Below are positions 8,555-60,429 of a stretch of 64,000 nucleotides of DNA, in pieces. This DNA comes from Minisyncoccota bacterium (GTDB lineage: Bacteria > Patescibacteriota > Minisyncoccia > Phycocordibacterales > JABMNX01): contig JAPHQU010000002.1 of assembly GCA_026195275.1 (NCBI GenBank), positions 69,964 through 133,963 on the forward strand, read 5' to 3'. The translations under genes were made by a program, and so were the position numbers. The notes under the pieces are model-generated. The model was not told the origin of the DNA, did not search any database, and was given only the letters and a program-made list of their open reading frames with translations. How positions within the stretch are numbered: position 1 is the stretch's first letter; every line of letters starts with the position of its first letter.

Positions 8555-8665
8555 CAAACAACCGCCTGATGGACATTGGATGTCCGTCATCGGGGATATT
8601 CATTTTGTCTGCCTGTCCGCAAACAGGACTTATGGAAGTCCAGATATCGTAAATATTAATAAAAT

Positions 8666-8690
8666 AAACGCCAGGCTATGCCTGGCGTTT
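8666..8690. terminator. Terminator hairpin aaacgccaggc-tat-gcctggcgttt plus T-run (member of conserved-stem family)
   Basis: Perfect inverted repeat followed by ttatttt, downstream of the surface protein gene. Confidence 0.65.
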
Positions 8691-8718
8691 ATTTTCTAGT
8701 GGCTCAAGTAAGCCACGA

Positions 8719-8744
8719 TAAACGCCAACCCGGGGTTGGCGTTT
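8719..8744. terminator. Terminator hairpin aaacgccaacc-cggg-gttggcgttt flanked by A/T runs (thrS side)
   Basis: Perfect inverted repeat. It lies immediately distal to the thrS stop on the - strand. Confidence 0.65.
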
Positions 8745-8757
8745 ATTTTTGACTGTT

Positions 8758-13780: not shown

Positions 13781-13834
13781 GATAGACTTAGTATACCACT
13801 CGCGGCAGATGAGGCGCCCTGAGGAAAACTCCTT

Positions 13835-14413
13835 ATGAAAAAGGTCAAGTATATTATCGGAATCGACGAAGTGGGGCGTGGGCCGGTCGCAGGGCCGGTT
13901 TCAGTTGGTGCCGTGTTGCTCTCACGCGAGTCATCATGGCAGGACTTCGATGGGCTTCGTGACTCCAAGAAGCTTACTGAAAAAAAACGAGAAGGATGGT
14001 TTACCGAAATAAAGGAGTCAGGTGTCATTTATGCGGTCTCCTCGGTGGGTGAGCAGGTAATCGATGAAAGAGGGATTGCGTATGCAATCAGACTTGCGCT
14101 TTCCCGCTCGCTTAAAAAGCTCAGTGTCGACCCGGGGGAATGTCTCGTGCTTCTCGACGGGGGGCTTAAGGCACCGGAGGAGTATGTGAACCAACAGACC
14201 ATCATTAAAGGGGATGAGAAAGAACACGTAATTGCGCTTGCCTCGATTGTTGCCAAGGTCACCCGTGATCGCTACATGACACACATGGGGAAGCGTCATC
14301 CTGAGTATTGTTTTGAGCAGCATAAAGGATACGGCACGAAACGTCACTATGAGGCGATAGAGGAGCACGGACTGTGCCCGCTGCATCGGCGCAGCTTCTT
14401 AAGAGGTTTCTAG
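13835..14413 (+). CDS. rnhB: Ribonuclease HII
   Basis: IIGIDEVGRGPVAGPV N-terminal catalytic motif and a length of 192 aa. Confidence 0.9.
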   Translation: MKKVKYIIGIDEVGRGPVAGPVSVGAVLLSRESSWQDFDGLRDSKKLTEKKREGWFTEIKESGVIYAVSSVGEQVIDERGIAYAIRLALSRSLKKLSVDPGECLVLLDGGLKAPEEYVNQQTIIKGDEKEHVIALASIVAKVTRDRYMTHMGKRHPEYCFEQHKGYGTKRHYEAIEEHGLCPLHRRSFLRGF

Positions 14414-14476
14414 TCGCCGGTTGGCGCTCATCGTCCTTAACCACCTAGCGTCTAAAACCTAACGCTTCACGACATC

Positions 14477-14504
14477 TTGCGATTCGTAAGATATCATGTA
14501 TAAT
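14477..14504 (+). promoter_or_regulatory. Putative sigma70-type promoter for rpmF (TTGCGA-16 bp-TATAAT), probably leaderless
   Basis: TTGCGA at 14477-14482 and TATAAT at 14499-14504. The first ATG (14513) is 8 nt downstream of the -10, with no SD. Confidence 0.5.
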
Positions 14505-14512
14505 CTCGTCAT

Positions 14513-14794
14513 ATGGGAGCACGGATGCGACTTACACGATCAAAAACCGGCAGCCGCCGGAGTAACCACGGGCTTGTTGAGCCGCGTGTTTCGACGTGTC
14601 CGAACTGTCAGGCACCACAGCTTCGTCACCGGGCGTGCACAGAGTGTGGTCAGTACCGCGGTCGTGTTGTCCTCGACGTCGCTCGAAAGGCCGAGAAGAA
14701 AGCCGTAAAGGCCGAGGCACGACAGCGGGAGATGGGGGAGGCAACACCCGAGAGAGAGGGTGATACAAAGACTCCGGAGGAATCTTCAAAGTAA
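14513..14794 (+). CDS. rpmF: 50S ribosomal protein L32 with Lys/Ala/Glu-rich C-terminal extension
   Basis: RRSNHGL...CPNC...LRHRACTECGQYRG matches the bL32 zinc-ribbon pattern. An alternative start is at 14525. Confidence 0.8.
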   Translation: MGARMRLTRSKTGSRRSNHGLVEPRVSTCPNCQAPQLRHRACTECGQYRGRVVLDVARKAEKKAVKAEARQREMGEATPEREGDTKTPEESSK

Positions 14795-14839
14795 ACGCAG
14801 GGCGTTTAGCTGGGGAGGTTCCACACATTTGTTTTAGAT

Positions 14840-15769
14840 ATGGCAAATAGGCACCTTTCAAGAAGTATTGTTCTTCAAACTCTATTCGAGGTTGATTTTG
14901 ATGATGTGGCAGGAAAAGGTGTGGATATCGATGAGGCGCTCGCTCGAAACACGGACGAATTTGCTCCGGGTTCGAGCGATATTTCGTTTATGAAGCGACT
15001 CCTTGATACTGTGGTCTCAAAACGCAAGGAACTCGACGATATTATTGTAAAAGCAGCACCCGAGTGGCCAATTGAGAAGATATCGGTAGTTGATCGCAAT
15101 GTGCTGAGGATGGGGTTGGCAGAGCTTCTCTTTGCGGATCGCGCAGAAGTGCCGGCGAAAGTTGCGATCAATGAGGCAATCGAACTCGCCAAGACCTTTG
15201 GTGGAGAGAGTAGTGGCCGGTTCGTGAACGGAGTTCTTGGTGCAGTGTATAAAGAGCTTGGCGAGCCGGGCAAACACGAGACCTCAAAGAAGAAAAAGAA
15301 GAAAGAGGTACCGTATGAGGACATGCCAATCGAGCGTCTTGGTGGCGCGGTGGTGTATGCGCGCGAAGGTGAAGAGGTATACCTCGCACTCGTGCATGAC
15401 GTCTTCGGACACTGGACGCTCACCAAAGGGCATGTTGAGGAAGACGAGGAGATCAAGGATGGGATTAAGCGTAGTGTGAAGGAAGAACTCGGTATTGAGG
15501 TATCGACTGAGAAAAAACTCGGCACCAATGAGTATGTCGCGACACATCCAGAGAACGGCAAGGTCCGCAAGCAGGTGATCTACTACCTCGCCAAGGCGCC
15601 GTTTGATGATCTTATGCTTCCTGAGAACAAAGGTGGGTTGGACGACGCGAAGTGGTTCAAACTCTCGAATATCCTTGACCTCAATTTCTACGATGATATC
15701 CTCCCAATAATCACGTCCGCAATCAATTTGCTCGTGAAGAATGATGAACCGAAAGAGGCAGAAGAGTAA
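14840..15769 (+). CDS. nusB: NusB (transcription antitermination) fused in-frame to a C-terminal Nudix hydrolase domain
   Basis: The N-terminal 145 aa is NusB-like (SRSIVLQTLFEVDF...AINEAIELAKTFGGESSGRFVNGVL). A poly-Lys linker (KKKKKK) follows. The C-terminal part has a near-canonical Nudix box, GHVEEDEEIKDGIKRSVKEELGI. Confidence 0.8.
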   Translation: MANRHLSRSIVLQTLFEVDFDDVAGKGVDIDEALARNTDEFAPGSSDISFMKRLLDTVVSKRKELDDIIVKAAPEWPIEKISVVDRNVLRMGLAELLFADRAEVPAKVAINEAIELAKTFGGESSGRFVNGVLGAVYKELGEPGKHETSKKKKKKEVPYEDMPIERLGGAVVYAREGEEVYLALVHDVFGHWTLTKGHVEEDEEIKDGIKRSVKEELGIEVSTEKKLGTNEYVATHPENGKVRKQVIYYLAKAPFDDLMLPENKGGLDDAKWFKLSNILDLNFYDDILPIITSAINLLVKNDEPKEAEE

Positions 15770-15777
15770 TACTGAAT

Positions 15778-16470
15778 ATGGAAAAAGATATACACAAATT
15801 TGAAACGGCACTTGGCGTTTCTTTCAATGACATCGGCTTGCTTAAGCAAGCGTTTATTCACCGTTCATATATCAATGAGCACAAAGAGAGTGGTCTTGAA
15901 CACAACGAGCGACTCGAGTTTCTTGGGGATGCGGTTCTTGAGCTCGTGGTGACTGATTTTCTCTATAAGAAGTACCCCAAGAAGACCGAAGGCGAGCTTA
16001 CTGCGTATCGCGCGGCACTCGTTAATACAGGTTCGCTCTCAGCGGCATCAGATAAGCTTGGAGTGAATGAATACCTCTGTCTCTCAAAAGGAGAGGCGCA
16101 GGACACCGGGCGAGCGCGTCAGTATATTCTCGCAAACACTTTTGAAGCGATTGCGGGCGCGCTTTACCTCGATCAGGGCTACGAAGCGGCGCAGAAGTTT
16201 ATTGACGACAACCTCTTTCATCTCACTGAAGATATCGTCGAGAAGGGTCTCTGGCAAGACGCAAAAAGTCGCTTTCAAGAGCAGGCACAGGAGCACGCTG
16301 GTATTACCCCGCGCTACGAGCTTGTTGAAGAGCGTGGACCAGATCATGATAAGACATTTGTGATCGGTGTTTATCTCGACAAAGCGCAGATTGCGACTGG
16401 TAAAGGGCTCTCAAAACAAGAGGCAGAGCAGGATGCGGCACAAGCAGCACTTGAACTCAAGGGGTGGTAA
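15778..16470 (+). CDS. rnc: Ribonuclease III
   Basis: ERLEFLGDAVLELVV signature plus a C-terminal dsRBD. Confidence 0.9.
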   Translation: MEKDIHKFETALGVSFNDIGLLKQAFIHRSYINEHKESGLEHNERLEFLGDAVLELVVTDFLYKKYPKKTEGELTAYRAALVNTGSLSAASDKLGVNEYLCLSKGEAQDTGRARQYILANTFEAIAGALYLDQGYEAAQKFIDDNLFHLTEDIVEKGLWQDAKSRFQEQAQEHAGITPRYELVEERGPDHDKTFVIGVYLDKAQIATGKGLSKQEAEQDAAQAALELKGW

Positions 16471-16478
16471 TTGTGAGC

Positions 16479-16514
16479 AAAAACCCCGGCGCGCCTTTAG
16501 GCGCGCCGGGGTTT
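16479..16514 (+). terminator. Rho-independent terminator after rnc
   Basis: aaaaccccggcgcgcc-ttta-ggcgcgccggggtttt perfect hairpin with a T-run. Confidence 0.75.
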
Positions 16515-16538
16515 TCTTTGATATAATAGGGCGTATCT

Positions 16539-18755
16539 ATGTACTTGAAATCACTCGAACTCTCCGGATTCAAATCTTTTGCGAAGAAGAGCGAGCTTAC
16601 GTTTGCCTCAGCAATCACCGCTATTGTGGGCCCCAATGGCTCGGGAAAGTCGAACGTCGCCGAAGCGTTCCGTTTTGTGCTCGGCGAGCAGTCGCTTAAG
16701 TCGATGCGTACCAAGCGTGGCGAAGACCTTATCTGGGGTGGCTCACACACCCAGTCGCGCGGGAATCGCGCATCCGCAAGAGTGTCTTTTGACAATACCT
16801 CACGGCTCTTTGATATCGATTTTGACGAAGTGACCATTGAGCGTATTGTGCACCGCGACGGAGTGAATCAGTACCTCATCAACGGAAGCTCCGTGCGACT
16901 CAAGGATGTCGCTGAACTGCTTGCAAGTGCAAATATCGGCTCGTCCGGGCACCATATCATCTCGCAGGGCGAGGCTGATCGGCTTCTCTCGGCGAGTATC
17001 AAAGAGCGTCGCGAGATGATTGAGGATGCGCTCGGGCTCAAGATCTTTCAATACAAGAAAAAGGAGAGCGAGAAGAAGCTTGAGCAGACGGAAGAAAATA
17101 TCAACCAGGTTATGAGTTTGCGTAAGGAGATCGCGCCGCATCTCCGCTTCCTTAAACGACAGGTCGAGAAGATTGAGCGCTCAAAGCAGATGCGCGAAGA
17201 ACTCACCGAGCTTTTGCGCGACTATCTCAGGCGTGAAGAGTTTTATATTACAAGCAAGAAAGCGGATATCGCGGTACGAGCGGCTGAGCCGCGCGAGAAG
17301 CTCGCACGACTCAATGCCGAGCTTGCCGAAGCCCGTGCAACACTGGAGAAGGTTTCAGAAGAAGACGCTCGTGGCAAAGAGGTGCTCGAGGTGGAGCAGA
17401 AGCTCAGGGAGACCCGCAAAGAGCGCGACGAGCTTGCTCGGAGAGTGGGGCGGCTCGAGGGCCAGATCTCATACGCGGAGAAACATGTGCAGCGTACGGC
17501 CGACAGTGTTGTCAAACTGTCTGCAGTAAAGATGCTCGCTGACGATATCGAACGTGAGGTTGCTGATGCAATGACGCTCGATTCGCTTGACCGAGTAAAG
17601 AGTGGGCTTGAGAAGGTTCGCTCGCTTGTCGTCTCATTTTTCAATACACACAAAGAACAAGAAGGAGTCGAAGATGGCCATGGAGATATTGAAGCGCTCC
17701 GCAAAGAAAAAGATGAGCTTGACGGTAAACTCAAGGAAGCAGAAACAAAGGAGGCCGAGCTCAGGGAGACATACAAAAAGCTCCAAGAGGAGCTTGATGA
17801 GAGCAGGGAAGAGGGGCGTGATGCTGAGCGTGCGGTCTTCCGTATTACAACCGAGAAGAACACGGTTGAGGGTACATTGCGTGACCTGGCGCGTGACGAA
17901 GAGGTCCTCAAGCAGCAGGAAGCAGAGTTTAATCGTGATGTGGAAGAAGGGGCAGTACTCGGCGGAAGGCTTGTCCTTGGCTATGCGGATATTACGCTTA
18001 ACGAAGACGCGGCACGCGCTGAGGCGCGGAGCTCTCAAGAGGAGCGGAAGCGGGAGGTTGAGCGCTTGAAGATTCGTGTTGAGGAAGCCGGGGGCGGCTC
18101 AAGCGACGAGGTGCTCAAGGAGTACCAAGAGGCGAGCGAGCGCGACGAGTTTCTTGAGCGCGAGGTGCGCGACCTCGAGACATCGAGTGAGTCACTCAAG
18201 CGCGTCATTGCCGACCTTGATGAGCAGTTGGCGGTGAAGTTTCGAGAGGGGATTGTTAAAATCAACAAGGAGTTCCAGCACTTCTTTGAACTTCTTTTTG
18301 ATGGCGGCTCGGCGAAGCTTACGGTGCTTGAACAGAAGAAGCGTGTGAAGAACAATATGCTTCTTACGGGAGATTTGGGAGAGGAAGAAGCCGAGATAGA
18401 AGCCGGTATTGATATTGGTGTCTCGCTTCCACGCAAGAAAGTGAAGGGACTCCAGATGCTCTCCGGTGGTGAGCGTGCACTTACCTCAATCGCGCTTCTC
18501 TTTGCAATGAGCCAGGTGAACCCACCGCCATTTTTGATACTCGATGAGACCGAAGCGGCGCTCGATGAGGCTAACTCGCGTAAGTATGGCGAGATGATTA
18601 AAGAGCTTGCGAAGAAGACGCAGCTTATCCTTATTACCCACAATCGTGAGACGATGTCAGTCGCCGGTATCCTCTACGGGATCACTATGGGGTCAGACGG
18701 CATCTCAAAACTTCTCTCGGTCAAATTCGACGAAGCAGTGCAGGTAGCGAAATAG
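16539..18755 (+). CDS. smc: SMC-like chromosome segregation ATPase, short form lacking recognisable hinge domain
   Basis: N-terminus LELSGFKSFAKK...GPNGSGKSN (Walker A) and QGEAD. The C-terminal part has LSGGERALTSIALLFA (ABC signature) and ILDETEAALD (Walker B). It is only 738 aa, with a continuous coiled-coil-like middle and no Gly-rich hinge. Confidence 0.8.
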   Translation: MYLKSLELSGFKSFAKKSELTFASAITAIVGPNGSGKSNVAEAFRFVLGEQSLKSMRTKRGEDLIWGGSHTQSRGNRASARVSFDNTSRLFDIDFDEVTIERIVHRDGVNQYLINGSSVRLKDVAELLASANIGSSGHHIISQGEADRLLSASIKERREMIEDALGLKIFQYKKKESEKKLEQTEENINQVMSLRKEIAPHLRFLKRQVEKIERSKQMREELTELLRDYLRREEFYITSKKADIAVRAAEPREKLARLNAELAEARATLEKVSEEDARGKEVLEVEQKLRETRKERDELARRVGRLEGQISYAEKHVQRTADSVVKLSAVKMLADDIEREVADAMTLDSLDRVKSGLEKVRSLVVSFFNTHKEQEGVEDGHGDIEALRKEKDELDGKLKEAETKEAELRETYKKLQEELDESREEGRDAERAVFRITTEKNTVEGTLRDLARDEEVLKQQEAEFNRDVEEGAVLGGRLVLGYADITLNEDAARAEARSSQEERKREVERLKIRVEEAGGGSSDEVLKEYQEASERDEFLEREVRDLETSSESLKRVIADLDEQLAVKFREGIVKINKEFQHFFELLFDGGSAKLTVLEQKKRVKNNMLLTGDLGEEEAEIEAGIDIGVSLPRKKVKGLQMLSGGERALTSIALLFAMSQVNPPPFLILDETEAALDEANSRKYGEMIKELAKKTQLILITHNRETMSVAGILYGITMGSDGISKLLSVKFDEAVQVAK

Positions 18756-46273: not shown

Positions 46274-47443
46274 TCAATTAGAGCGGGTCAGGATTGGTTG
46301 ATCAATGTCTATCGCAGGTACTATGCCGTAGCTTGAAAGAGCGCCCTGTAAGTAGTGAAAAAACTCTGGACTAGGTGGAGGAAACTTTGGGTGCTGAATT
46401 ATTTTGCCGCACACTTCTCCGTGTTCTGCTTCGTGCTCAGTTTGATAATGGTAGGAGTAGTTGGTGAAGAATACAGCGTTCAAAGGGTATTCCTCTGGTG
46501 GTAGGTCTTTCAGTTTCCGATCAACGATAGATTTTACGTCCTTGATCCATTGTTTGTCGTCCGCGGGAACATCTGGGGTCGGAGGAGTGTTTACGTCAAT
46601 GAATACTGCGAATGGCACGTCCTTCGGATTTTGTTCAAGTGCCTCCTTGAACAATCGTTTTATTACGCGAGCAGAGTACAGTTTTTCTAAAGGTTGCAAT
46701 AAGCCAGTTTCGTGGAGTACACCACTTCTTTTCTTGCTCTTTGCTTCAACGGCGAGTACGGCTTTGGTTTCTCTATGTGTAGCGATAAACTCACAGTGCT
46801 TATTCTTGCTATTTTCGTCAGTGAACTCAATATCACAATCTAGTCGTGCAAATATTGCCGCGATTGCAATCTCGTACCGTGCACCTTGATAGTGTTCGCG
46901 TGTCTTTAGGCGATCCAGTAGTGAAGGTGGCAAGTTGCGCGTATGTATCAAGCTACACACATCAAAGGCGAGAAGTAACAAACTTTTTGAGTATCCGTCT
47001 GGCTTTGCTCCCCACACTTCGTCGCTGACACGTTCCGCTACCTTTTCGTTGCGCTCAATCCATTCACCAAGCTTCTCCAGACACAAAGATATAAAGTGTC
47101 GTTCCTCTTGAGGTAGTTCTGTTTGTGCACGGAACCAGTCAAGCCCGATTGTTTCTTTGAGTATTTGGATAATGAAGCTATGGAATGTCGTGTTGGTGGG
47201 AATATCTGCATATACTTTATTCCCAAGAGCAAACACTTTTTTACCTTTGAACACGATCGGCTTTACATAGTTGATGTGTATCCCTGCTTGCTTCAGGTAC
47301 TCTTGTCTGGCTACTACTTCTCTAAAGTGTTCAATAACTTCTGGCGGAATATCATTGCTTTGGTCTTTGTTCATACAGCATCTTTTATATTTTTTTCCAC
47401 TTCTACAGGGACAAGGTTGGTTTCTTCCAGTACGAGCATTCAT
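46274..47443 (-). CDS. SEC-C motif protein with possible PD-(D/E)XK-like nuclease core
   Basis: N-terminal PCPCRSGKKYKRCC is a SEC-C metal-binding motif. Downstream, DCDIEF...LAVEAKSKK resembles the D...(D/E)xK nuclease motifs (tentative). Confidence 0.55.
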   Translation of the reverse strand: MNARTGRNQPCPCRSGKKYKRCCMNKDQSNDIPPEVIEHFREVVARQEYLKQAGIHINYVKPIVFKGKKVFALGNKVYADIPTNTTFHSFIIQILKETIGLDWFRAQTELPQEERHFISLCLEKLGEWIERNEKVAERVSDEVWGAKPDGYSKSLLLLAFDVCSLIHTRNLPPSLLDRLKTREHYQGARYEIAIAAIFARLDCDIEFTDENSKNKHCEFIATHRETKAVLAVEAKSKKRSGVLHETGLLQPLEKLYSARVIKRLFKEALEQNPKDVPFAVFIDVNTPPTPDVPADDKQWIKDVKSIVDRKLKDLPPEEYPLNAVFFTNYSYHYQTEHEAEHGEVCGKIIQHPKFPPPSPEFFHYLQGALSSYGIVPAIDIDQPILTRSN

Positions 47444-48344: not shown

Positions 48345-49910
48345 ATGAAAAAAGCCACAAAATCAACCAAAAAGAAAACAGAAAGTGCTGGACGATTTGA
48401 GGCACAACTTTTCAAAGCGGCAGACAAACTCCGAAAGAACATAGACGCGGCTGAGTACAAACACGTTGTACTCGGTCTTATTTTTCTGAAGTTCATATCA
48501 GACGCATTTGATGTGCACTACCAGAAACTTGCCTCGGGTAAGGGTGAATATGAGGGTGCCAACCCAGAGGATCAAGACGAATACAAAGCAGAAAACGTAT
48601 TTTGGGTACCGCCAGAAGCGCGGTGGGCACACCTTCATTCACGCGCAAAGTTGCCGAGTATCGGTAAGGATTTGGACGCGGCAATGGAGGCGATTGAGCG
48701 AGCCAACCCGACACTCAAGGGTATCCTCCCGAAAGAGTACGCAAAACCAAACTTGGACAAGGTAGCACTCGGTGGTTTGGTAGACCTTATTGCAGACGTT
48801 GCACTCGGCGAGGAAAGCGAAAAATCAAAAGACCTTATTGGACGTGTGTATGAGTACTTTCTCGGCGAGTTCGCTTCGCTTGAAGGCAAGAAGGGCGGGC
48901 AATTCTACACTCCTAGAAGCATTGTTGAACTTATGGTGCAAATGATAGAGCCAATGACGGGACGTGTGTACGACCCTGCGTGTGGTTCGGGTGGAATGTT
49001 TGTGATGAGCGAGAAGTTTGTGCTCGCACATCGCGGGCGTTTGGAAGACATTTCTATTTACGGACAAGAGAGCAACCACACCACCTACCGCCTTTGCCGT
49101 ATGAACCTCGCGCTTCGCGGAATAGATGGCTCGCAAGTGAAATGGAATAGCGAAGGGTCATTTCTCAAAGACGCACACCCTGACCTCAAAGCGGATTACA
49201 TTTTGGCAAATCCGCCTTTCAACCAAAACGACTGGGGCTGGGACATTCTCAGAAACGACGCTCGTTGGAAGTACGGTTTGCCGCCAGAAGGCAACGCAAA
49301 CTATGCGTGGCTTCAACATATGATCCACCACCTTTCTCCAAAAGGTGTAATGGCAACGGTACTTTCAAATGGTTCGCTTTCCTCCAACCAAGGTGGCGAA
49401 GGAGAACTGCGAAAGAAACTTGTGGAGGAGGATATGGTGGACTGTATCGTTGCGCTTCCAAACCAACTTTTCTACAACACAGGCATTCCTGCTTGTTTGT
49501 GGTTTATCTCACGTAAGCGCATTGGCAACGGCGACAGGAAACGCACAGGAGAAGTGCTATTTATAGACGCGTCGCAAATGGGGGCGCTGGTAGACCGAAC
49601 GCACAGAGAGTTTACCGAGGAGGACATCAAAAAGATTGCGGGCACGTATCACGAGTGGCGACAGAAAAACAACAAGTACAAGGACATCAAGGGCTTCTGC
49701 AAATCATCATCACTCGCGGAGATACAAAAGAACGGCTACGTGCTCACGGCAGGGCGCTATGTGGGTATTGCAGATGGCGCGAAAGACAGCGAGCCGTTTG
49801 AGGAGAAAATGACGCGGCTCACCAGTACCCTCAAGGAGCAAATGGAGCAGGAGCAGACCTTGAACGAGGAAATAAAGAAGCAACTGAAAAAAGTTGGATT
49901 TGAACTATGA
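48345..49910 (+). CDS. hsdM: Type I restriction-modification system methyltransferase subunit
   Basis: N-terminal LFKAADKLRKNIDAAEYKHVVLGLIFLKFISD, motif I DPACGSGGM and motif IV NPPFN. Confidence 0.92.
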   Translation: MKKATKSTKKKTESAGRFEAQLFKAADKLRKNIDAAEYKHVVLGLIFLKFISDAFDVHYQKLASGKGEYEGANPEDQDEYKAENVFWVPPEARWAHLHSRAKLPSIGKDLDAAMEAIERANPTLKGILPKEYAKPNLDKVALGGLVDLIADVALGEESEKSKDLIGRVYEYFLGEFASLEGKKGGQFYTPRSIVELMVQMIEPMTGRVYDPACGSGGMFVMSEKFVLAHRGRLEDISIYGQESNHTTYRLCRMNLALRGIDGSQVKWNSEGSFLKDAHPDLKADYILANPPFNQNDWGWDILRNDARWKYGLPPEGNANYAWLQHMIHHLSPKGVMATVLSNGSLSSNQGGEGELRKKLVEEDMVDCIVALPNQLFYNTGIPACLWFISRKRIGNGDRKRTGEVLFIDASQMGALVDRTHREFTEEDIKKIAGTYHEWRQKNNKYKDIKGFCKSSSLAEIQKNGYVLTAGRYVGIADGAKDSEPFEEKMTRLTSTLKEQMEQEQTLNEEIKKQLKKVGFEL

Positions 49911-50938
49911 GCGAAAAAATAACAACAGAAAATGTATTTGAGGTAGATGTTCCAGCATTGGCACTGGACAGCCGCTTTGGCAGTTTGGTATTTGAAAACG
50001 CCAACAAAAAACTCGGTAAGGCGCAAGCGTTTCTGAAAGAAGTGTACGATCTTGGCTATCAAGAACTTCTCAACGAAAGTGGTATAAATCAGGTTGGAAA
50101 TCTAACCAACAAACTGACGGAGCATTTGGAATGGCTTCGCAACTTTGATATTGGTACAGTTGCAAACGCAAAGCAGGAGCACGACAACTTTGAAAGTCGT
50201 ATTGACGGCTTCTATAACGATATTTACGAGCAGATACTGATGAGAACGCTCCCGTTCCTCCGAGAGGAGCGCCGTCGCGAAAACCCTGACCAAAAACAGT
50301 TGGATGAGGAGGTAAAGAAAGCAGTACAGGTACGCACTGAGCTTGAGGATGAACTAAAAGCAATACGCGAGGAAACTCAAAAAATCCGCACTGCAAATAA
50401 ACAAGTTGGTTCCGCTAAGGGTCAGAGGGCGGCAGTACAAATGGCGGCACACTTTGATGATGAAGTAGAACGCTATGCAACTCTCTCAAAGTATTGGCTT
50501 TGGGGCGTTGTAGGCGGATATGTCGCTATTGTTGCAGTTCTTGTTTGGCTCGGGTTTGTTACCGCCTCATATGTACATCAAATCGTCTCTTTGCCCGACA
50601 CCGTGGACACGAGTGGTATCTGGAGCGCTGTGATCTCAAAACTCGTTATCTTGGCGGCGCTATGGTATGGCTTATCGTTCGTTATCAAAAACTACAACGT
50701 GAACTCTCATTTGGCGGCAGTAAACCGACACCGCGCCGCAGTGGCACGAACTCTGGAGGACTTCATAGCGGTAGAACAACAGCAGGAAAATCCGCGCTTG
50801 TCGGAAGTGCTACAGCACGCTTCCGAAGCAATGTTCAAGAATGTGCCGATTGGTTTCGTCTCTAAGACAGAACGCGAACAAAGCAATCCCGTGCTTCAGA
50901 TAGTGAATGACCTGATCGGGATAAAGAACAACACATAG
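49907..50938 (+). CDS. Embedded gene X1: coiled-coil N-terminal domain plus 2-TM membrane protein, function unknown
   Basis: 343 aa. The start overlaps the hsdM stop (ATGA). TM helices are WLWGVVGGYVAIVAVLVWLGFV and SAVISKLVILAALWYGLSFVI. No motif recognised. Confidence 0.6.
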   Translation: MSEKITTENVFEVDVPALALDSRFGSLVFENANKKLGKAQAFLKEVYDLGYQELLNESGINQVGNLTNKLTEHLEWLRNFDIGTVANAKQEHDNFESRIDGFYNDIYEQILMRTLPFLREERRRENPDQKQLDEEVKKAVQVRTELEDELKAIREETQKIRTANKQVGSAKGQRAAVQMAAHFDDEVERYATLSKYWLWGVVGGYVAIVAVLVWLGFVTASYVHQIVSLPDTVDTSGIWSAVISKLVILAALWYGLSFVIKNYNVNSHLAAVNRHRAAVARTLEDFIAVEQQQENPRLSEVLQHASEAMFKNVPIGFVSKTEREQSNPVLQIVNDLIGIKNNT

Positions 50939-50941
50939 TAT

Positions 50942-51535
50942 ATGGAAATCGTTTATATTCTCACCAACCAAGCAATGCCCGACTACGTGAAGGTTGGGCG
51001 CACCAAAGACCTCCAGCAAAGGTTGAAAAGTTTGTATCGCACACCCGTGCCACTTCCTTTTGAGGTGTTCTATGCGTGCACTGTTGAGAACTCTATGGAA
51101 GTAGAGGCGTGGCTGTTTGAGATTTTTGACGATAGGCGGGTGAGCAAAGAGCGAGAGTTTTTTGAGATAGCGCCAGAGCGCGTTGCCGCGGCATTGCGTG
51201 CACGAGCGGTGCAGGAGGTAACCCCGAAGCAGACGTACACAGAGAACAAAGAGGACGAGGTGGCACTGGAAAAGGCACGCTCAAAACGCGACAAGTTCAA
51301 CTTCGCAATGGTGGGTATTCCTGCTGGTGCTGAACTTACCTTCAGTAGAGACGAGAATATAAGGGCGCGGGTAGTAGACAACCACAACATTGAATACAAC
51401 GGCAAGGTAACGAGTTTGTCTACCTCGGCACAGGAAATACTTGGCTACAACTATGGAGTGGCGGGCACGTTGTATTGGTCGTATGAAGGCGAAACTCTCC
51501 ACGCGCGGCGCGTGCGAATGGAGGAAGGAGAATGA
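50942..51535 (+). CDS. Embedded gene X2: T5orf172 (GIY-YIG-like) + DUF4357-like domain protein
   Basis: N-terminus IVYILTNQAMPDYVKVGRT...REFFE is T5orf172-like. The C-terminal part KFNFAMVGIPAGAELTF...SLSTSAQEILGY...WSYEG is DUF4357-like. This family is commonly found inside type I R-M loci. Confidence 0.65.
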   Translation: MEIVYILTNQAMPDYVKVGRTKDLQQRLKSLYRTPVPLPFEVFYACTVENSMEVEAWLFEIFDDRRVSKEREFFEIAPERVAAALRARAVQEVTPKQTYTENKEDEVALEKARSKRDKFNFAMVGIPAGAELTFSRDENIRARVVDNHNIEYNGKVTSLSTSAQEILGYNYGVAGTLYWSYEGETLHARRVRMEEGE

Positions 51536-52797
51536 ATATGAGCACGACGACACAATGGAAAAAAGGATTTTTATACGAGATCGCGACGGTAGTCGGGGGC
51601 TATGCATTCCGAGGTGAGGATTTTGGAAGTGAAGGAACTGCCGTCATAAAAATAAAAGACATTCAGCCGCCGTATGTTGATATTCAAAATGCCGAAAGGA
51701 TAGATCAACAGAAGTACAATCAACAAAAGATTGAGAAGTTCAAACTTTCAAAGGGAGATTGTTTAGTCGCTATGACTGGAGCGACGATAGGAAAGGTTGG
51801 AAAGATTTCGTATGACGAGGTTTCTTATCTGAACCAACGAGTAGCAAAGGTGGCGGAAAAGAGAGGTGTGGCGGATAAGAACTTTGTTTACTACGCGGTT
51901 TTAGGTAGTGATTTCCAGCGATACGTGAACACAACCTCATCTGGTAGCAGTGCTCAGCAAAACATTAGCGCCGATGATATAGGGCGTTTTCCTATTGTTT
52001 ATCCCATAGACATAAAAGATCAATGTACAATCGCGCAAGTTCTCATCAGTTTAGACAAAAAGATTGAGTTGCTACGGAAGCAAAACGAGACGCTGGAGGA
52101 AATGGCGAGGGCGATTTTCAACGCGTGGTTTGTGGAGTTCAACTTTCCAGATAAGGACGGTAAGCCATACAAAGCGTCTGGCGGGAAAATGGTAGACAGT
52201 GAATTTGGCGAAATCCCAGAGGAATGGCGCGTCGGTACTCTTGCCGAACTTATAGATCAGTTGAGTGAACGCATTGGCTCTGATGAGCAGTCAAAGTACA
52301 CGGTTATGTCTGCAGTAAACACAGGGCAACTCGTGCCTTCAAGTGAGTATTTTACTAAACAGGTTTTTAGTAAGAGCATTTCAAAATACATCAAAATCCA
52401 CCAAGGAGATTTTGCATACAATCCAGCACGTATCAACATCGGTTCTATTGGGAGATTGCGAGAACTTATCTTGGGAGCTGTTAGTCCTGTATATGTCGCG
52501 TTTCGCGCAAAAGAAGGCGCGGGAGCGTTTGTTGATTTCTTGATCCAGACGGCAAAAATGAAAAAACATATTGAACTCTATGCTAACGGGTCAGTGCGGC
52601 AAACACTTGACTATGACGGTTTCGGAGCATTTTCTTTTGCAGTTCCAACGGAAAATATCCTGAAAGAGTTTGACAAGATCACTGCTTCTCTACGGAATAT
52701 TTTTGAACGGAAGGAAGCCCAGATTGAGAACCTGCGAACTGTTCGGGATTTACTACTGCCAAAACTAATGAGCGGAGAGGTTCGCGTAAATACGTAA
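51532..52797 (+). CDS. hsdS: Type I restriction-modification system specificity subunit
   Basis: Two target-recognition halves separated by the conserved central helix region LLRKQNETLEEMARAIFNAWFVEF. C-terminal LRTVRDLLLPKLMSGEV. Start overlaps the X2 stop. Confidence 0.85.
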   Translation: MNMSTTTQWKKGFLYEIATVVGGYAFRGEDFGSEGTAVIKIKDIQPPYVDIQNAERIDQQKYNQQKIEKFKLSKGDCLVAMTGATIGKVGKISYDEVSYLNQRVAKVAEKRGVADKNFVYYAVLGSDFQRYVNTTSSGSSAQQNISADDIGRFPIVYPIDIKDQCTIAQVLISLDKKIELLRKQNETLEEMARAIFNAWFVEFNFPDKDGKPYKASGGKMVDSEFGEIPEEWRVGTLAELIDQLSERIGSDEQSKYTVMSAVNTGQLVPSSEYFTKQVFSKSISKYIKIHQGDFAYNPARINIGSIGRLRELILGAVSPVYVAFRAKEGAGAFVDFLIQTAKMKKHIELYANGSVRQTLDYDGFGAFSFAVPTENILKEFDKITASLRNIFERKEAQIENLRTVRDLLLPKLMSGEVRVNT

Positions 52798-52801
52798 ACA
52801 T

Positions 52802-53458
52802 ATGGAAAGCACAGTAGAAAAAATCACCGATACAGTATCCGACGCATTCAGAAGCATAGCCGAGATTGCAAAGGAGCGAATATTTACGCCAATGTATTTC
52901 TACTTCCTTGGTGCGTGGCTCATTACCAACTGGAAGTTTGTGTACACATTCTTTTTTGCTGATGAAAAACTGATACTTGAACACACTGGAATGTTGAAAG
53001 TTGAGTATCTGACGCAAATCTATCCTCACGACTGGACGGCGGTATTTCCGTTATTTGTTATACCGTTCGGGCTCGCGTATTTGGCAGTTTGGTGGTTCTC
53101 TGTCGTTTCCGAGAGGTTTTATAAAAAACACGAGGAGCACCAAATGAATAAGCGTGTGATCAAGCGCGAAGTTGAGTACCGCGAGAAGGTGGCATATTTC
53201 AAATCAGAGCGTGAAGTACGCGAGCAACAACTTGATCCGCAGGTGAAGTATGAGGAGAACAGGGACTACAACGAGCAAATAGACGAGAGCAATCCAGAGG
53301 TGGAAGTGAATGGAGTGCCTATGTTGCCAAGCGAAGTTTTGTATAAAACGGATTACCTTGCATATAAAACAGGGCTAGACGAATATACAGCAGAACTCGC
53401 ACAGAAGGGCGAGGATTTGGCAGTTCAGGCAGAAATAGACCGCCGACGCGGAAAATGA
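52802..53458 (+). CDS. Embedded gene X3: 2-TM membrane protein with charged C-terminal tail, function unknown
   Basis: 218 aa. Helices are [22 protein letters not shown] and [22 protein letters not shown]. Its stop overlaps the hsdR start (ATGA). Confidence 0.55.
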
Positions 53459-56400
53459 TTATGACCAAAATATACGAAAGCGATATAGAACTGTGGGTGA
53501 TAGAACTGCTGGAAAAGCAGGGTTATGTGTATCTATCTCCAGAGGAACAAGAAGCAGAGCGCCCCGATATGCGCGAGGTTGTTTTGCGTACGCGACTTAC
53601 AGAAGCGGTGGCGCGGCTCAACCCGCTAGTACCAAAGGACGCACAAGACGACGCGATACGGCAAGTAATAAACCTCTCGCCACAGCACTTGGTGGAAAGC
53701 AACGAGACATTCCAGAAAATGCTCACTGACGGAGTGAGCGTGGAGGTGGCGGGCGATCAGGGTGGCACACGTGGCGAAGTGGTGCACCTGATTGATTTTG
53801 CTAACCCAGAAAATAACGACTTGGTGGTAACCAATCAGTTCATTATTCCGTACGACCACACGAGTAAACGTCCAGACGTGGTGCTTTTAGTAAATGGACT
53901 ACCGCTTGCCGTGATTGAACTCAAAAATCCTGCGGACGAAAACGCGACGGTACACAAGGCGTTCACGCAACTCCAAAACTACAAAGACGCAGTGCCACAA
54001 CTCTTTACCTACAACGGCATTCTTGTTGCCTCTGACGGTTTGGATACTCGTGTCGGTTCACTCACGGCTCCGTGGGAGCGCTTTGTGGTGTGGCGTGCAC
54101 CTGAGGATAAAAAACACGGCGAGGATAAACGCCCGCAAATGGAAACGGTAGTTGAGGAAATGTTGAAACCCGCAGTGCTTCTGGATTTGATACGCAACTT
54201 CACGGTGTTTGAAAAGGTGAAAAAAGAGAACAAAGAGACAGGGCTGGTAGTGGTGGAAAGTGTAAAAAAGGTTGCGGCATACCACCAGTACTATGTGGTC
54301 AACAAGGCGATCAACTCAACGCTTCGCGCTACCGAGGAGCACGGAGAGCGCAAAATTGGTGTGGTGTGGCACACACAGGGATCGGGCAAATCCCTCTCTA
54401 TGGTGTTTTATACAGGCAAAGCGGTGCTTGCACTCAATAACCCGACGGTAGTGGTGATTACCGACCGCAACGATTTGGACGACCAGTTGTTTGATACATT
54501 TGCGGCGAGCCGCGGGCTTCTGCGCCAAGAGCCAGTACAGGCAGAAAGCCGAGCACATTTGAAAGAACTCTTACAGACCGCAGGAGGCGGGATTGTGTTT
54601 ACGACCATCCAAAAGTTTTTCCCCGAGGACGGCGGCGAGACATACGATCAACTGACCGACCGCAAAAACGTAGTGGTGATTGCAGACGAAGCGCACCGTA
54701 GCCAATACGGATTTGCCGCTCGTACGGTATTCAAAGATGACGAAGCGATTACCCGCTATGGCAACGCAAAATATTTGCGCGATGCACTTCCGAATGCCTC
54801 ATTCATTGGTTTTACGGGCACACCGATTGAAAGCACTGATCGCTCCACCCCTGCCGTGTTTGGTGAATACCTTGATGTGTACGACATTCAAGACGCAGTG
54901 CGCGATGGCGCTACTGTTCCTATCTACTACGAGAGCAGATTGGCAAAAGTACACCTGCCAGAGGAAAAAAGTGAGGAAATAGACGCAGACGTGGAAGCAG
55001 TGGCAGAAGGTTTGGAGTTCACCGCAAAGGAAAAAGCGAAGGCGAAGTGGGCGCAATTGGAAGCAATCATTGGCAACCAAGAACGCCTGAAAGAGATAGC
55101 GAAGGACTTGGTGGTGCACTTTGAAGCGCGACAGGAAGTGAACGTGGGCAAGGCAATGATTGTGGCGATGAGTAGACGCATTGCCGTTGATTTGTACCGC
55201 GAGATAGTGGCACTTCGCCCAGAGTGGTACAACGACGATTTGGAGAAAGGTGCAATCAAAGTTGTAATGACGGCGAACTCGTCAGACCCGAAGGAGTTTC
55301 AGCCACACCACACGAATAAAGAAGCACGACGACGACTTGCCGATCGTTTCAAAGACGCGGGAAGCGACCTCAAACTAGTTGTGGTGTGCGATATGTGGCT
55401 CACAGGATTTGATGTGCCGTCTTTGCACACAATGTACATAGACAAACTTATGCGCGGACACAATCTTATGCAGGCGATTGCCCGCGTGAACCGCGTCTTT
55501 AGAGATAAGGAAGGAGGTCTTATCGTGGACTACATTGGTTTTGCCGCCGACCTCCAGAAAGCACTCGCCGTGTATACGGGAAGCGGTGGTACAGGAAGCC
55601 CGACCGTAACTCAAGACAAGGCGGTGGAGATAATGCTGGAGAAATACGAAGTCGTGAAGCAAATGTTCCACGGCTTTGACTACCACCGTTACTTCACGCT
55701 TGATACTCGTGGCAAACTCGGGCTTATTTTGGAAGCGCAGGAGCACGTCTTGGCGCAAGACAATAAAGTACCCGCAGAGGGCGAAAAGAAGTCCCAGAGC
55801 CCTTCAGAGCGCTTTATACACGAGGTTACAGCCCTCTCTAAGGTCTTTGCCATTGCGGTGCCACACGAGGAGGCACTGGCGATACGCGACGAAGTGGCAT
55901 TTTTCCAAACAATCAAAGCCCGCTTGATCAAGTTTGACCCAGACCCGACCAACTGCCGCGAGGATATAGAGACGGCAATACGACAGATTGTAGATAAGGC
56001 AGTGGTTACCGAAGGCGTAGTGGATATTTTCCAAGTCGCGGGTATTCCAAAGCCAGACATTTCCGTGCTCTCGGACGAGTTCCTTGCAGAGGTGCAGGGA
56101 ATGAAGCACCAGAATGTCGCAATGGAACTTATGAAGCGGCTCCTCAATGACGAAATACGCTCACGATTGCGAAAGAACCTCATACAAGGAAAGAAGTTCT
56201 CAGAAATGCTCGGTAAGACCATCACGAAGTATCAGAACAACCTCCTCACTGCCGCCGAAGTCATACAAGAACTCATTGCGCTTGCGAAAGAATTACGCGG
56301 TGCAGATGAACGCGGTGAGGATTTGGGACTTTCTGACGATGAACTCTCGTTCTATGACGCATTGGCAAACAACGAAAGTGCTCGTGATGTAATGAACGAC

Positions 56401-56613
56401 GAGACACTTCGCGATCTTGCGCGAGTGCTGGTAGACAGGGTACGGGCGAGTGCCACGGTGGACTGGACGATACGCGAGAACGTAAAAGCAAAGTTGCGCG
56501 TCTTGGTAAAACGTACGCTCGCCAAGTACGGCTATCCACCAGACAAGCAGGCAATCGCTACGGAAACCGTGCTCAAACAGGCGGAACTTTTCGCTGATGA
56601 TTGGGCGAAATAA
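53455..56613 (+). CDS. hsdR: Type I restriction enzyme endonuclease/helicase subunit
   Basis: N-terminal nuclease domain, SF2 motifs ([16 protein letters not shown]) and a length of 1052 aa. Confidence 0.92.
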
Positions 56614-57366: not shown

Positions 57367-57919
57367 GTGGGCTCACTTGTAGTCCTATATCACAAATACA
57401 TTTCCTCCTACTCTGGCTTCTAGGTCAGAGTTTTTCTTTGACCTGAACAATCAGCTCAGACGAGGACAGAACCTTCCCTCTGCCTCGGAAAAAACAATCA
57501 AACGGGAATAGTGAGAGGTTTTCAGATCACGCGGGCGGGAGAACCGCCCCCCTAATCTGAAAATCTCCTAGGAAGGTGTTGGAGGAAAGTTGGGACATTG
57601 GAAAAGAGAGGACGAACGGCGGGCTGACCTTTTGCCCAACACTGTCCATCTCTCTTTTGCTCCGATCCTTCTCTGAACTGTACATACCCACCTCTCCCTT
57701 TTGGGTAGGGTGCCCAACTCCCTAATGTCTTTAGGGAAAGCGGGAGATATGGAAAAGATTTTATGGATATACCAGACGAAAAAATCCAGAAACTCCGAGA
57801 GATATACCGTAAAGAATACGGGGTTGAAATCTCTGACGAGGAGGCAAAAGTACTCGGCGAATATCTCGTGAACCTTTTTCGTGCTGTATACAATGTTTGA
57901 AATCCTATAGAATAAACTT

Positions 57920-59662
57920 ATGCGTACACCACCGTCAGACCTCAAATATTTCCTCTATGCTCGCAAGTCCACGGAAAGCGAGGATAGACAGGCGGCTTCC
58001 ATTGAGGATCAGGTTTCCGAAATGAAGCGTTTGGCAGAGCGGTTGGGTATTCAGATTGCGGAAGTAATCACCGAAAGCCATTCAGCAAAGAAACCGAACA
58101 ATCGTCCCCAGTTTACAAAAATGATGGAGCGTATTCACGCAGGAGAAGCCAATGCAATCTTGTGTTGGAAACTCAACCGCCTTGCCCGCAATCCCATAGA
58201 CGGAGGTTTGGTGAGTTGGTCGCTTCAACAAGGAATAATCCAGCACATTCAGACCTTCGGCGGTGGTTTCAGTCCAGACGATAATGTGCTCCTTATGCAG
58301 GTTGAGTTTGGTATGGCAAACCAGTATGTGAAGGATTTGAGCGTGGACACTAAGCGAGGTATGCGTAAGAAGGCAGAGCGTGGCTGGTATCCTGCTGGCG
58401 TGCTTCCTGCGGGCTATGAGCACCGCCCAAGCGCAAGCAACACGGGTGAGGACGAGATTGTGCCGAATGATGATTTTTCACTGGTAAAGAACCTGTGGGG
58501 TAAGTTGCTCACGGGGCGCTATACGATAATGGACATAAAACGCGAGGGAGACAGAATAGGATTGCGTAATCGCAAGGGACAGAAATATTCAAAAAATAAC
58601 TATTATGCGATGTTTGCCAATGAGTTCTACGCTGGTTGGTTTTATTGGGTGGACGAAAATGGAGTACACCAGCGCGTCCACGGCAAACACAAGGCAATGA
58701 TTAGCGAGGAGGAGTTTAGGAAAGTGCGTATTTTCCTTGGCAACCAAGGCGGCAAGAATAGATTGGTACGGTACACGTTCCCATTCAGGGGGAAAATGGT
58801 GTGTGGCGAATGTGCACGAATGATTACCGCCGAGCAAAAGATACAGGCGCGGTGTACGAACTGTCGGCACAAGTTTTCAATCAAACACACGAACGTATGC
58901 CCGCAATGCGAGACGGTGCTACAAGATATGGATAGTCCGCACATTGTGGATCGTACCTATTACATCTGCGTTGGTGCTACCAAGAAAATTTGCTCACAGC
59001 GCGGTGCCGTAGAGCAGGGCGAACTTACGAAGCAAATAGACCAAATCCTTCAGAATGTCTCTATCCCCAAGAGTTTCCACGAGTGGGCTGTGGACGCAGT
59101 GAAGCACGTAACCGAAAAGGACGCGGTTGAGGATGGAGCGACGCTAAACGTAATGCGGAACCGTGAGAGCGACCTTGAACAGCAGTTGAACGAGGTAACA
59201 GTTATGCGTGCCCGTCAGGAGATAACCCCTGCACACTTCAGCAAGACAATGGCAAGGATTGAAAAAGACCTTACCGATATTCGCGGAGAGATTGGCAAAA
59301 TGCACAAAAGCAAGATTGACTGGGGGCACATAGCGAACCAGTACCTCACCTTTGCAGAGACAGCGCAGGAGCGCTTTGAGAATGGAGACACGGCGACCAG
59401 AAAACTGATACTGGAGTGTATTAGTCCGAACCTGCTTTTGAAGGACAAAAAACTAAGCGTTGTAATGCCAAAACCACTGTTGGGTGTACGCTCTGCCTTC
59501 AATGTGCTATCCACTGACGTGCTGGGGTTAGAACCAGAAAAAGCCCTTGCGGGGCAAGGACTTTTTCAACGTATTGAACCCTCAAATACAATCGGGCTCC
59601 GCCTAGTAGACGACGTTCGAACCTATTGCCTTAGTGTACAAGTTAATCTTTTTGGAATTTAA
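57920..59662 (+). CDS. Large serine recombinase (resolvase/integrase family)
   Basis: N-terminal catalytic domain YARKSTESEDRQ...NAILCWKLNRLARN. Then a recombinase domain and a zinc-ribbon (CGECARM...CTNCRH...CPQCE), with a coiled-coil C-terminus. Length 580 aa. Confidence 0.85.
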   Translation: MRTPPSDLKYFLYARKSTESEDRQAASIEDQVSEMKRLAERLGIQIAEVITESHSAKKPNNRPQFTKMMERIHAGEANAILCWKLNRLARNPIDGGLVSWSLQQGIIQHIQTFGGGFSPDDNVLLMQVEFGMANQYVKDLSVDTKRGMRKKAERGWYPAGVLPAGYEHRPSASNTGEDEIVPNDDFSLVKNLWGKLLTGRYTIMDIKREGDRIGLRNRKGQKYSKNNYYAMFANEFYAGWFYWVDENGVHQRVHGKHKAMISEEEFRKVRIFLGNQGGKNRLVRYTFPFRGKMVCGECARMITAEQKIQARCTNCRHKFSIKHTNVCPQCETVLQDMDSPHIVDRTYYICVGATKKICSQRGAVEQGELTKQIDQILQNVSIPKSFHEWAVDAVKHVTEKDAVEDGATLNVMRNRESDLEQQLNEVTVMRARQEITPAHFSKTMARIEKDLTDIRGEIGKMHKSKIDWGHIANQYLTFAETAQERFENGDTATRKLILECISPNLLLKDKKLSVVMPKPLLGVRSAFNVLSTDVLGLEPEKALAGQGLFQRIEPSNTIGLRLVDDVRTYCLSVQVNLFGI

Positions 59663-60239: not shown

Positions 60240-60356
60240 TGCTGTTAGTACGTATATGATTACATAATTTATAAAATAAATCAAGAGGACTGTTGATATG
60301 TTTATTTGATAAATTAGTTGAGAATAGCTCTAAAAAATAAGGTTATTTTTACTCTG

Positions 60357-60429
60357 CTCCACGGACAGGGCTCGAACCTGTGACCCAGCGATTAACAGTC
60401 GCTTGCTCTACCAACTGAGCTACCGTGGA
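60357..60429 (-). tRNA. tRNA-Asn (anticodon GTT)
   Basis: Hand-folded cloverleaf: acceptor tccacgg/ccgtgga, D-arm gctc-agttggtag-agc, anticodon stem agcga/tcgct with loop ctGTTaa, and T-arm acagg-ttcgagc-cctgt. CCA is not encoded. Confidence 0.85.

Follow-up and report, generated by a model that had tools for sequence, protein, structure and literature searches.

X1, a two-transmembrane protein nested in a type I restriction operon of a Minisyncoccota bacterium, is a candidate phage-defence protein

Introduction

Single proteins that join a cytoplasmic sensor to a membrane-killing module are a known theme of phage defence. Among the described systems closest to the protein considered here are the SLATT proteins (SMODS- and SLOG-associating two-transmembrane (2-TM) effectors, SLATT_1 to SLATT_6), which have a membrane hairpin flanked by cytoplasmic helices and a conflict-system setting. 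AbiZ of Lactococcus, which acts through the membrane and lysis timing, and the class II holins combine a cytoplasmic region, two transmembrane (TM) helices with both termini inside the cell (N-in/C-in) and a charged cytoplasmic tail. The anticodon nuclease PrrC is the product of a non-restriction gene that lies between the type I subunits of the EcoprrI operon and is co-transcribed with them, and it is a plausible second line of defence; the EcoprrI/PrrC/Stp system is the established example behind the idea of a guard that watches over restriction. Here we analyse X1, the 343-residue product of a gene lying between hsdM and hsdS in a 64,000-nucleotide stretch of a Minisyncoccota genome (contig JAPHQU010000002.1, positions 69,964 to 133,963; hereafter the window). 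An NCBI entry from a 'Candidatus Pacebacteria' metagenome-assembled genome, annotated as a hypothetical protein, is 100% identical to X1, whose family matches none of the described sensor-plus-membrane-killing proteins.

We find that X1 is a real gene and a member of a very large family of constant architecture, and that its association with restriction systems and mobile defence cargo is strong and varied. Judged from sequence and context, X1 is a good candidate for a phage-defence gene. The best-supported reading, to which we give a probability of roughly 0.5, is that X1 would be a self-contained, single-gene defence protein acting by membrane disruption and travelling in the gene pool in and around restriction systems. 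The family spans candidate phyla and Proteobacteria and is repeatedly nested in restriction operons. If X1 protects against phage, it would represent a widespread new effector family, provide a function for Pfam DUF6161 and show a back-up to restriction in small-genome Patescibacteria. Few defence systems other than restriction-modification (RM) are generally attributed to these bacteria.

Family and architecture of X1

In database searches, X1 matched 88 clusters (90% identity) at E ≤ 1e-35; these come mostly from Patescibacteria, and none carries a Pfam domain. A 60-member profile retrieved 3038 clusters at 50% identity (E ≤ 0.001), 1618 of them at E ≤ 1e-10, and nearly all of the matched clusters are full-length at 320–350 aa. 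Homologues align from residue 1–3 of X1, which backs its start codon. Near-invariance in 123 diverse members is seen at F29, F80, F183, W197, N273, H275, R276, T282, F310, and G316. Conservation is highest in the second TM helix (TM2) and the C-terminal tail, the latter being the best-conserved part of the protein; it is lower in the N-terminal bundle and least in the stalk and in the loop between the TM helices.

The AlphaFold2 (AF2) model of full-length X1 is all-helical (predicted local distance difference test (pLDDT) 84.3; predicted template-modelling score (pTM) 0.44). Helices of the N-terminal bundle (Table 1) span residues 30–48, 57–79, and 88–125, and its conserved positions are G25, L27, F29, F80, L115, L118, and R119. 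The charged stalk that follows runs directly into the first TM helix (TM1) and is conserved in its juxtamembrane part (F183, E186, Y190, W197). A second helix, residues 236–290, takes TM2 on into a conserved basic helix. Seven K/R residues were read from the sequence in the TM flanks (182–196 and 262–281) and none in the intervening loop (226–236), which by the positive-inside rule gives X1 an N-in/C-in topology. The loop takes insertions of up to about 45 aa among aligned homologues and appears dispensable. A HEPN reading of the N-R-H-R motif in the tail was rejected, as its spacing and order, read from the sequence, do not fit R-x4-6-H.

The original prediction for this gene, made without database searches, described a coiled-coil protein with a Glu/Lys-rich, helical N-terminal region of ~200 residues, two strongly hydrophobic helices and a tail of ~90 residues, start-coupled to hsdM. 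The open reading frame (ORF) is present on the forward strand, and the 88 homologous clusters and thousands of full-length family clusters mark it as a non-chance ORF. Its start does overlap the hsdM stop (ctATGAgc), and the two hydrophobic helices are borne out by hydropathy peaks, with Kyte-Doolittle means over 19-residue windows of up to 2.3 (about residues 197–225) and up to 2.1 (about 237–262). The overall plan likewise holds: a helical N-terminal region and a tail, both cytoplasmic, on either side of a 2-TM hairpin, with translational coupling to hsdM. Some details needed adjustment. The N-terminal region is helical in the AF2 models and contains 24 E and 15 K in residues 1–195, but the strong charge is confined to residues 111–195, 49% of which are E, K, R, D, or Q. 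The coiled-coil description fits only the stalk, whereas the first 125 residues form a compact helical bundle. The C-terminal tail is present but is 81 rather than ~90 residues long.

This anatomy suggests one polypeptide that combines a cytoplasmic input module with a membrane output module. In the reading we prefer, X1 would span the cytoplasmic membrane with its two termini on the inner side, and the N-terminal helical bundle would serve as a sensing or regulatory module for an infection cue. The signal would be relayed down the long stalk helix continuous with TM1; the conserved TM2 and the basic N-x-H-R helix following it would then rearrange or oligomerise, the membrane barrier would be lost and the infection would be aborted once restriction has failed. 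The conserved effector-like part includes a lysine within TM2 and the polar N-x-H-R cluster, the latter right at the inner membrane face. The analysis shows the anatomy, topology, family and context of X1; phage defence, membrane damage, oligomerisation and the choice of sensing end are inferred.

Comparison with known effectors

X1 scores below every curated threshold in Pfam and NCBIfam, and PADLOC and PHROGs return only weak compositional matches. The matches from these four scans, LeoBC, LmuB, PbeC, CCDC113, and TctB among them, were rejected as coiled-coil or compositional noise. PDB sequences yielded no match below E 0.07, either to X1 alone or to the family profile. Foldseek searches of the PDB with the full-length model gave nothing below E 0.35, and PcsB, axonemal coiled coils and ClyA/AhlB were of negligible probability. 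Across the Pfam, NCBIfam, PDB sequence, and Foldseek searches, no transport or structural family was matched confidently, an outcome that would have refuted the proposed resemblance to membrane-active abortive infection (Abi) effectors. The searches gave membrane activity or an Abi role no support either, as AbiZ, SLATT, CBASS/Pycsar TM effectors and holins were all without a significant match.

Weaker signals were also seen. In a Pfam scan of the 123 members, the families that recur below threshold are hairpin-type membrane families: DUF2207_C (18 members), DUF6161 (10), 8xMP (8), NNH7 (5), and SLATT_1 (4, best 2e-5). The one significant relative that Foldseek returned from predicted viral structures (BFVD) is an uncharacterised siphovirus protein (E 2.9e-7); weak matches to SLATT 2-TM effectors (E 0.3–4) rank below it.

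X1 probably works like the 2-TM effectors of conflict systems (SLATT, AbiZ-type, holin-like). By the tests run it is a member of none of these groups, because its hidden Markov model (HMM) and fold matches are insignificant and it lacks both a signal-generating partner and neighbouring lysis genes. X1 itself has no significant SLATT HMM or fold match, and it differs from SLATT proteins in having its own 195-aa N-terminal region. Genomic context was compared in about 27 distinct loci (labelled L below), with 20 non-redundant loci of the Patescibacteria (candidate phyla radiation, CPR) branch as the context sample, and a SMODS, SLOG, TIR or reverse transcriptase partner is present in none of the roughly 27. 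The PADLOC AbiZ model misses X1 and reaches its relatives weakly, in three of 123 members (best E 1.4e-4). Class II holins are under about 150 aa, compared with 343 aa for X1, and are encoded beside an endolysin, whereas none of the loci examined has a lysis gene next to the X1 homologue.

The N-terminal bundle has a further possible parallel in the executioner bundles of nucleotide-binding leucine-rich repeat (NLR)-type proteins (plant NRG1 CC-R; NNH7 and SesA). In a Foldseek search of the PDB with the bundle alone, nothing fell below E 1.9, and the top match, at this insignificant value, was the NRG1.1 CC-R bundle (template-modelling score 0.54–0.61). SesA also appears below threshold in one family member. 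However, X1 lacks an NTPase module and helical bundles match each other easily, so we treat this similarity as a lead only.

One source labels a relative as 'ElaB/YqjD/DUF883 family', and type I enzymes are reported to be associated with the inner membrane. X1 might on these grounds be a housekeeping or accessory membrane protein that does not kill, either a tether for the restriction enzyme or a ribosome binder like ElaB. This is highly improbable: Pfam and NCBIfam give no match to DUF883/ElaB or any housekeeping family, and the patchy, mobile-element-linked spread of X1, with many solitary copies, does not fit a core function.

Association with restriction systems in Patescibacteria

A restriction gene lies within three genes of the X1 homologue at 11 of the 20 CPR-branch loci, and the restriction types represented are I, IIB/IIG-like, II, III-like, and IV. 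X1 sits between the methylase and specificity genes at six loci: the window, L012/L013, L023, L028, and L041/L042 (type I) and L018, where X1 follows a fused HSDR_N_2-N6_Mtase-Eco57I gene and a type I-like specificity subunit is encoded separately, two genes 3'. Junctions in the nested loci range from −4 nt (overlap) to +35 nt (gap). The 4-nt overlap of X1 with hsdM recurs in L023, and in L028, a WOR-1 genome with a homologue 27% identical to X1, the 4-nt overlap is with hsdS. Identity ranks agree across four type I loci (X1 52/39/27%, HsdM 58/49/40%, HsdR 51/43/31%). Since the ranks of X1 follow those of HsdM and HsdR, we read the nesting of X1 in type I operons as old and stable. Closer homologues than the type I-nested ones (57–68% identity) sit in other contexts, and therefore X1 also moves alone, as a single module.

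These other contexts are diverse. At L006–L009 and L040, an N6_N4 methylase accompanied by a ResIII helicase lies downstream of the X1 homologue. The L040 homologue (P0056, positions 8001–9290; 429 aa, with a stalk helix longer by about 86 residues) ends 1 nt 5' of the 766-aa N6_N4 methylase, in an island that also carries an M78 peptidase, the ResIII helicase, Abi_C, and a Zeta toxin. At L003 the homologue is flanked by SRA-HNH and Mrr genes, at L014 it precedes a DpnI-like gene, Tsp45I and a methylase, and at L024 EcoRII is three genes away. Abi_C is also a neighbour at L022 and Fic at L020. Proteins matching the PADLOC candidate PDC-S32 occur at L012 (13319–14146, sharing a type I operon with the X1 homologue) and at L010 (11419–12207, two genes downstream). 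A DUF3644 protein is common to the L012 and L023 operons, and pairs of HTH and M78 peptidase genes are found at L010, L012, and L040. In an all-against-all comparison of neighbours, the families present in more than three loci were type I RM genes (five loci) and serine recombinases (five loci); no obligate partner gene was constant. The link to defence in the original prediction is strengthened by this comparison, with six methylase-X1-specificity operons, type II, III-like, and IV genes, Abi_C, and Fic, and by the integron and prophage settings of the distant relatives described below.

Conserved nesting invites comparison with PrrC, a precedent for an Abi gene nested in a type I RM system (bioRxiv 10.1101/2024.01.29.577857). 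X1 could be a guard of the same style, made in step with HsdM and kept inactive by the intact enzyme, until an anti-restriction protein frees it to kill through the membrane. The overlapping starts and stops in the window, L023, and L028 are in line with this proposal, as are the position between methylase and specificity genes, retained in six loci down to 27% identity, and a divergence that tracks HsdM and HsdR. Yet nesting accounts for only six of 20 CPR-branch loci, and the closest homologues are outside type I operons. Elsewhere, homologues sit beside unrelated restriction types or beside none at all, and the proteobacterial relatives described below are solitary cassettes or prophage inserts; it is unlikely that one N-terminal domain would read such different partners. 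PrrC itself is almost exclusively nested (bioRxiv 10.1101/2024.01.29.577857) and X1 is not. Furthermore, X1 has no ABC-ATPase or anticodon nuclease domain in Pfam, NCBIfam, or PADLOC, its model is all-helical with two TM helices and it is not confined to type I operons, so that the resemblance to PrrC is positional only. We consider a PrrC-style guard unlikely.

In a broader version of this idea, X1 would be a general membrane-bound guard whose bundle monitors whichever restriction complex (I, IIB, II, III, or IV) is co-encoded with it, and an anti-restriction attack would cause the TM2/N-x-H-R module to open the membrane. If true, X1 would be a pore-based counterpart of PrrC and a main second line of defence in Patescibacteria, a prospect that we rate as quite unlikely.

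Relationship to DUF6161 and mobile relatives in Proteobacteria

The Pfam model DUF6161 (PF19658) has a gathering threshold of 27 bits and covers only the C-terminal 216 positions. X1 gave no match to this model at E ≤ 1, and ten distant members gave none at E ≤ 0.01. A tblastn search with a distant family member led to a hypothetical protein on Vibrio tubiashii plasmid pFP31 (WP_272788435.1), which scores 23.8 bits against DUF6161 (E 3.5e-5, profile positions 49–215 of 216), slightly short of the cut-off. The proteobacterial branch headed by this Vibrio relative contains 1430 clusters, a few with precomputed PF19658 annotation (annotated members include P0240, P0279, P0308, and P0325). Alignment of the X1 family with the Vibrio branch by hhalign gave a probability of 98.4% and E 8.1e-15 over 309 columns, at full length and including the N-terminal bundle. 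The motif KN...H...VN(K/R)HR...T is common to both, and the branch consensus reads KNF..H.H.A.VNKHRQNA..T.

On this evidence, X1 is best described as a divergent branch of a superfamily that Pfam DUF6161 captures in part, because profile-profile homology connects it to the PF19658-carrying branch; the Pfam threshold itself is missed. DUF6161 proteins, uncharacterised and mainly from Pseudomonadota, resemble X1 in length (about 335 aa), in the order of bundle, stalk, 2-TM hairpin, and conserved tail and in the motif K...Y...KN...H...VN(K/R)HR..A..T, whereas X1 and its Patescibacteria relatives miss the Pfam model entirely. The link gives a name and no mechanism. A DUF6161 family of Pseudomonadota has been listed as a language-model defence candidate without known features (bioRxiv 10.1101/2025.01.08.631966). 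The Vibrio relative is experimentally tractable, so that a direct test is possible.

Relatives in this branch are found on mobile DNA of several kinds. The Vibrio copy (L030, plasmid pFP31 of 311 kb, record 185402–202355) lies in a run of single genes split by Vibrio cholerae repeat (VCR)-like repeats of 125–138 nt, that is, a defence-rich integron cassette array, whose genes encode Hhe, a HEPN-associated protein, a 5'-nucleotidase, the X1-like protein, a GIY-YIG nuclease, and AbiH. Viral contigs carry copies on the strand opposite to the surrounding terminase, portal, major head, tail/tape-measure, and integrase genes, where the accessory genes ("morons") of prophages usually sit. Those in complete genomes are solitary and beside transposases, as at L032 and L033, and on Piscirickettsia plasmids one relative is near Fic genes and ArdA. 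Patterns of the CPR branch found no relatives in IMG/VR viral contigs, and a tblastn search with X1 found none in GenBank phages.

The array at L030 bears on a further proposal, that X1 and the T5orf172/GIY-YIG protein encoded next to it in the window (PADLOC candidate PDC-S57) form a two-gene system of membrane sensor or anchor and nuclease effector. The two genes are 3 nt apart in the window. In V. tubiashii, the X1-like gene is followed by the GIY-YIG gene (L030 9092–9748), whose product is 39% identical to that of the window over 72 aa, and a repeat search found no clear VCR-type repeat between the two. The Vibrio spacer does, however, end in a GTTAGGC core-site-like sequence and may be a degenerate attC parting two cassettes. 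The pair occurs in only two of about 27 distinct loci (the window and L030), PDC-S57 is catalogued as a single-gene candidate, and the tight packing of all genes in the window operon makes adjacency uninformative. A two-gene system is thus very unlikely.

Mobility could also be the essence of X1, in that it may be a membrane factor that rides as cargo on integrative elements, plasmids, and phages and serves them, for instance, in maintenance or in entry or superinfection exclusion. Homologous serine recombinases lie within 10 kb of X1 or its homologues in the window, L003, L006, and L017, and L003 and L010 have type IV secretion system (T4SS) pilin, RepSA or TrwB-like genes nearby. The L003 island (13495–18398) carries a RepSA-like gene, a serine recombinase gene, and a pair of T4SS-pilin genes, which hints at a conjugative or integrative element of an uncultured small-genome bacterium. 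The Piscirickettsia and Vibrio plasmids, the transposases at L032 and L033, and the prophage copies add to this picture. Nevertheless, the only outside part of X1 is an 11-residue variable loop and all conserved parts are cytoplasmic, which is the wrong geometry for blocking entry at the surface. Exclusion proteins are usually system-specific, whereas X1 is one family across unrelated element types and phyla, and its nesting between restriction subunits argues for defence cargo. A role of this kind strikes us as improbable.

Taken as defence cargo, X1 has the spread of contexts that is expected, from restriction operons to integron cassettes, prophages, and plasmids. Its distribution also fits the 'guilt-by-embedding' logic of the study that produced the PDC-S57 model (bioRxiv 10.1101/2024.01.29.577857). 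Several points weigh against a membrane-disrupting defence protein. The full-length monomer model, with its pTM of 0.44, has a pLDDT of 47–60 over tail residues 310–343. X1 has no significant similarity to any validated defence protein, and PADLOC yields noise that stems from the coiled-coil regions of SMC-like proteins, along with AbiZ in the three members already mentioned and '2TM effector' in two of 123. Contexts at five of the 20 CPR-branch loci (L015, L017, L021, L026, and L027), and also at L029 and L032, are uninformative. Many loci are on mobile elements, so that X1 could be linked to the mobilome and not to defence. Lastly, the six nested cases may derive from one or two ancient insertions.

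The restriction operon and its surroundings

The operon runs in the order hsdM, X1, T5orf172 gene, hsdS, orf218, hsdR, orf248, with all genes on the forward strand and tightly packed (Table 1). The stop of the T5orf172/GIY-YIG-like gene overlaps the start of hsdS by 4 nt. The HsdR of L012, to which that of the window is homologous, has HSDR_N, ResIII, and T1RH-like_C domains. Because a terminator-like hairpin with a T-run follows orf248, the genes from hsdM through orf248 are suggested to form a single transcription unit.

Table 1. Coordinates of X1, its regions and neighbouring features in the window
Feature	Coordinates	Strand	Basis
X1 coding sequence	49907..50938	+	343 aa + stop; ORF list and sequence
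N-terminal cytoplasmic helical bundle, residues 1–125	49907..50281	+	AF2 domain model, pLDDT 96.8, pTM 0.89 (32-sequence alignment)
Charged stalk helix, residues 128–196, continuous with TM1	50288..50494	+	AF2: single helix 128–228
TM1, residues 197–225, Gly-rich, sequence poorly conserved	50495..50581	+	Hydropathy, alignment
Extracytoplasmic loop, residues 226–236, no K/R, length variable	50582..50614	+	Alignment; charge count
TM2, residues 237–262, strongly conserved (K245, W253, Y254, F258)	50615..50692	+	Hydropathy, conservation
Cytoplasmic tail, residues 263–343 (81 aa), motif N273-x-H275-R276...T282 + F310 + G316	50693..50935	+	Near-invariant columns, 123 diverse members
ATGA overlap, X1 start codon (49907–49909) with hsdM TGA	49907..49910	+	Sequence ctATGAgc; translational coupling
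hsdM, type I methylase, directly 5' of X1	48345..49910	+	Pfam N6_Mtase 6.7e-109, HsdM_N 1.9e-25
T5orf172/GIY-YIG-like gene, between X1 and hsdS	50942..51535	+	Pfam T5orf172 9.9e-17; PADLOC candidate PDC-S57 1.8e-67
hsdS, specificity subunit	51532..52797	+	Pfam Methylase_S 1.3e-13
orf218, second embedded gene, between hsdS and hsdR; hydrophobic/charged-helix protein, 218 aa	52802..53458	+	ORF; phrog_4780 5e-9
hsdR, restriction subunit	53455..56613	+	Homologous to HsdR of L012, L023, L028
orf248, final operon gene, 248 aa	56620..57366	+	ORF
Terminator-like hairpin with T-run, 3' of orf248	57410..57431		Terminator scan
Large serine recombinase, beyond operon terminator	57920..59662	+	ORF
tRNA-Asn, beside recombinase	60356..60429	-	

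The large serine recombinase and the tRNA-Asn beyond the terminator may mark an island boundary, in which case the operon would be carried on an integrative island. When the left side of the island was compared with the tRNA-Asn side in search of att-like direct repeats, only a 12-nt match at chance level emerged. The product of orf248 matched no family in Pfam, PADLOC, NCBIfam, or PHROGs, and orf218 had no Pfam or PADLOC match. Read from its sequence, the orf218 protein has N-terminal hydrophobic segments and a charged, helical C-terminal half. A weak relative of orf218 (E about 1e-4 to 1e-5) occurs at L026 8615–9427, on a Saccharibacteria contig, after dnaK and two genes 3' of the X1 homologue. 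Upstream of the restriction operon and divergent from it, positions 46274–47443 of the reverse strand encode a 389-aa protein with an N-terminal SEC-C zinc motif (Pfam 3.5e-8); its weak PADLOC matches (E2, PDC-S12) are limited to the first ~50 residues, which are the SEC-C region.

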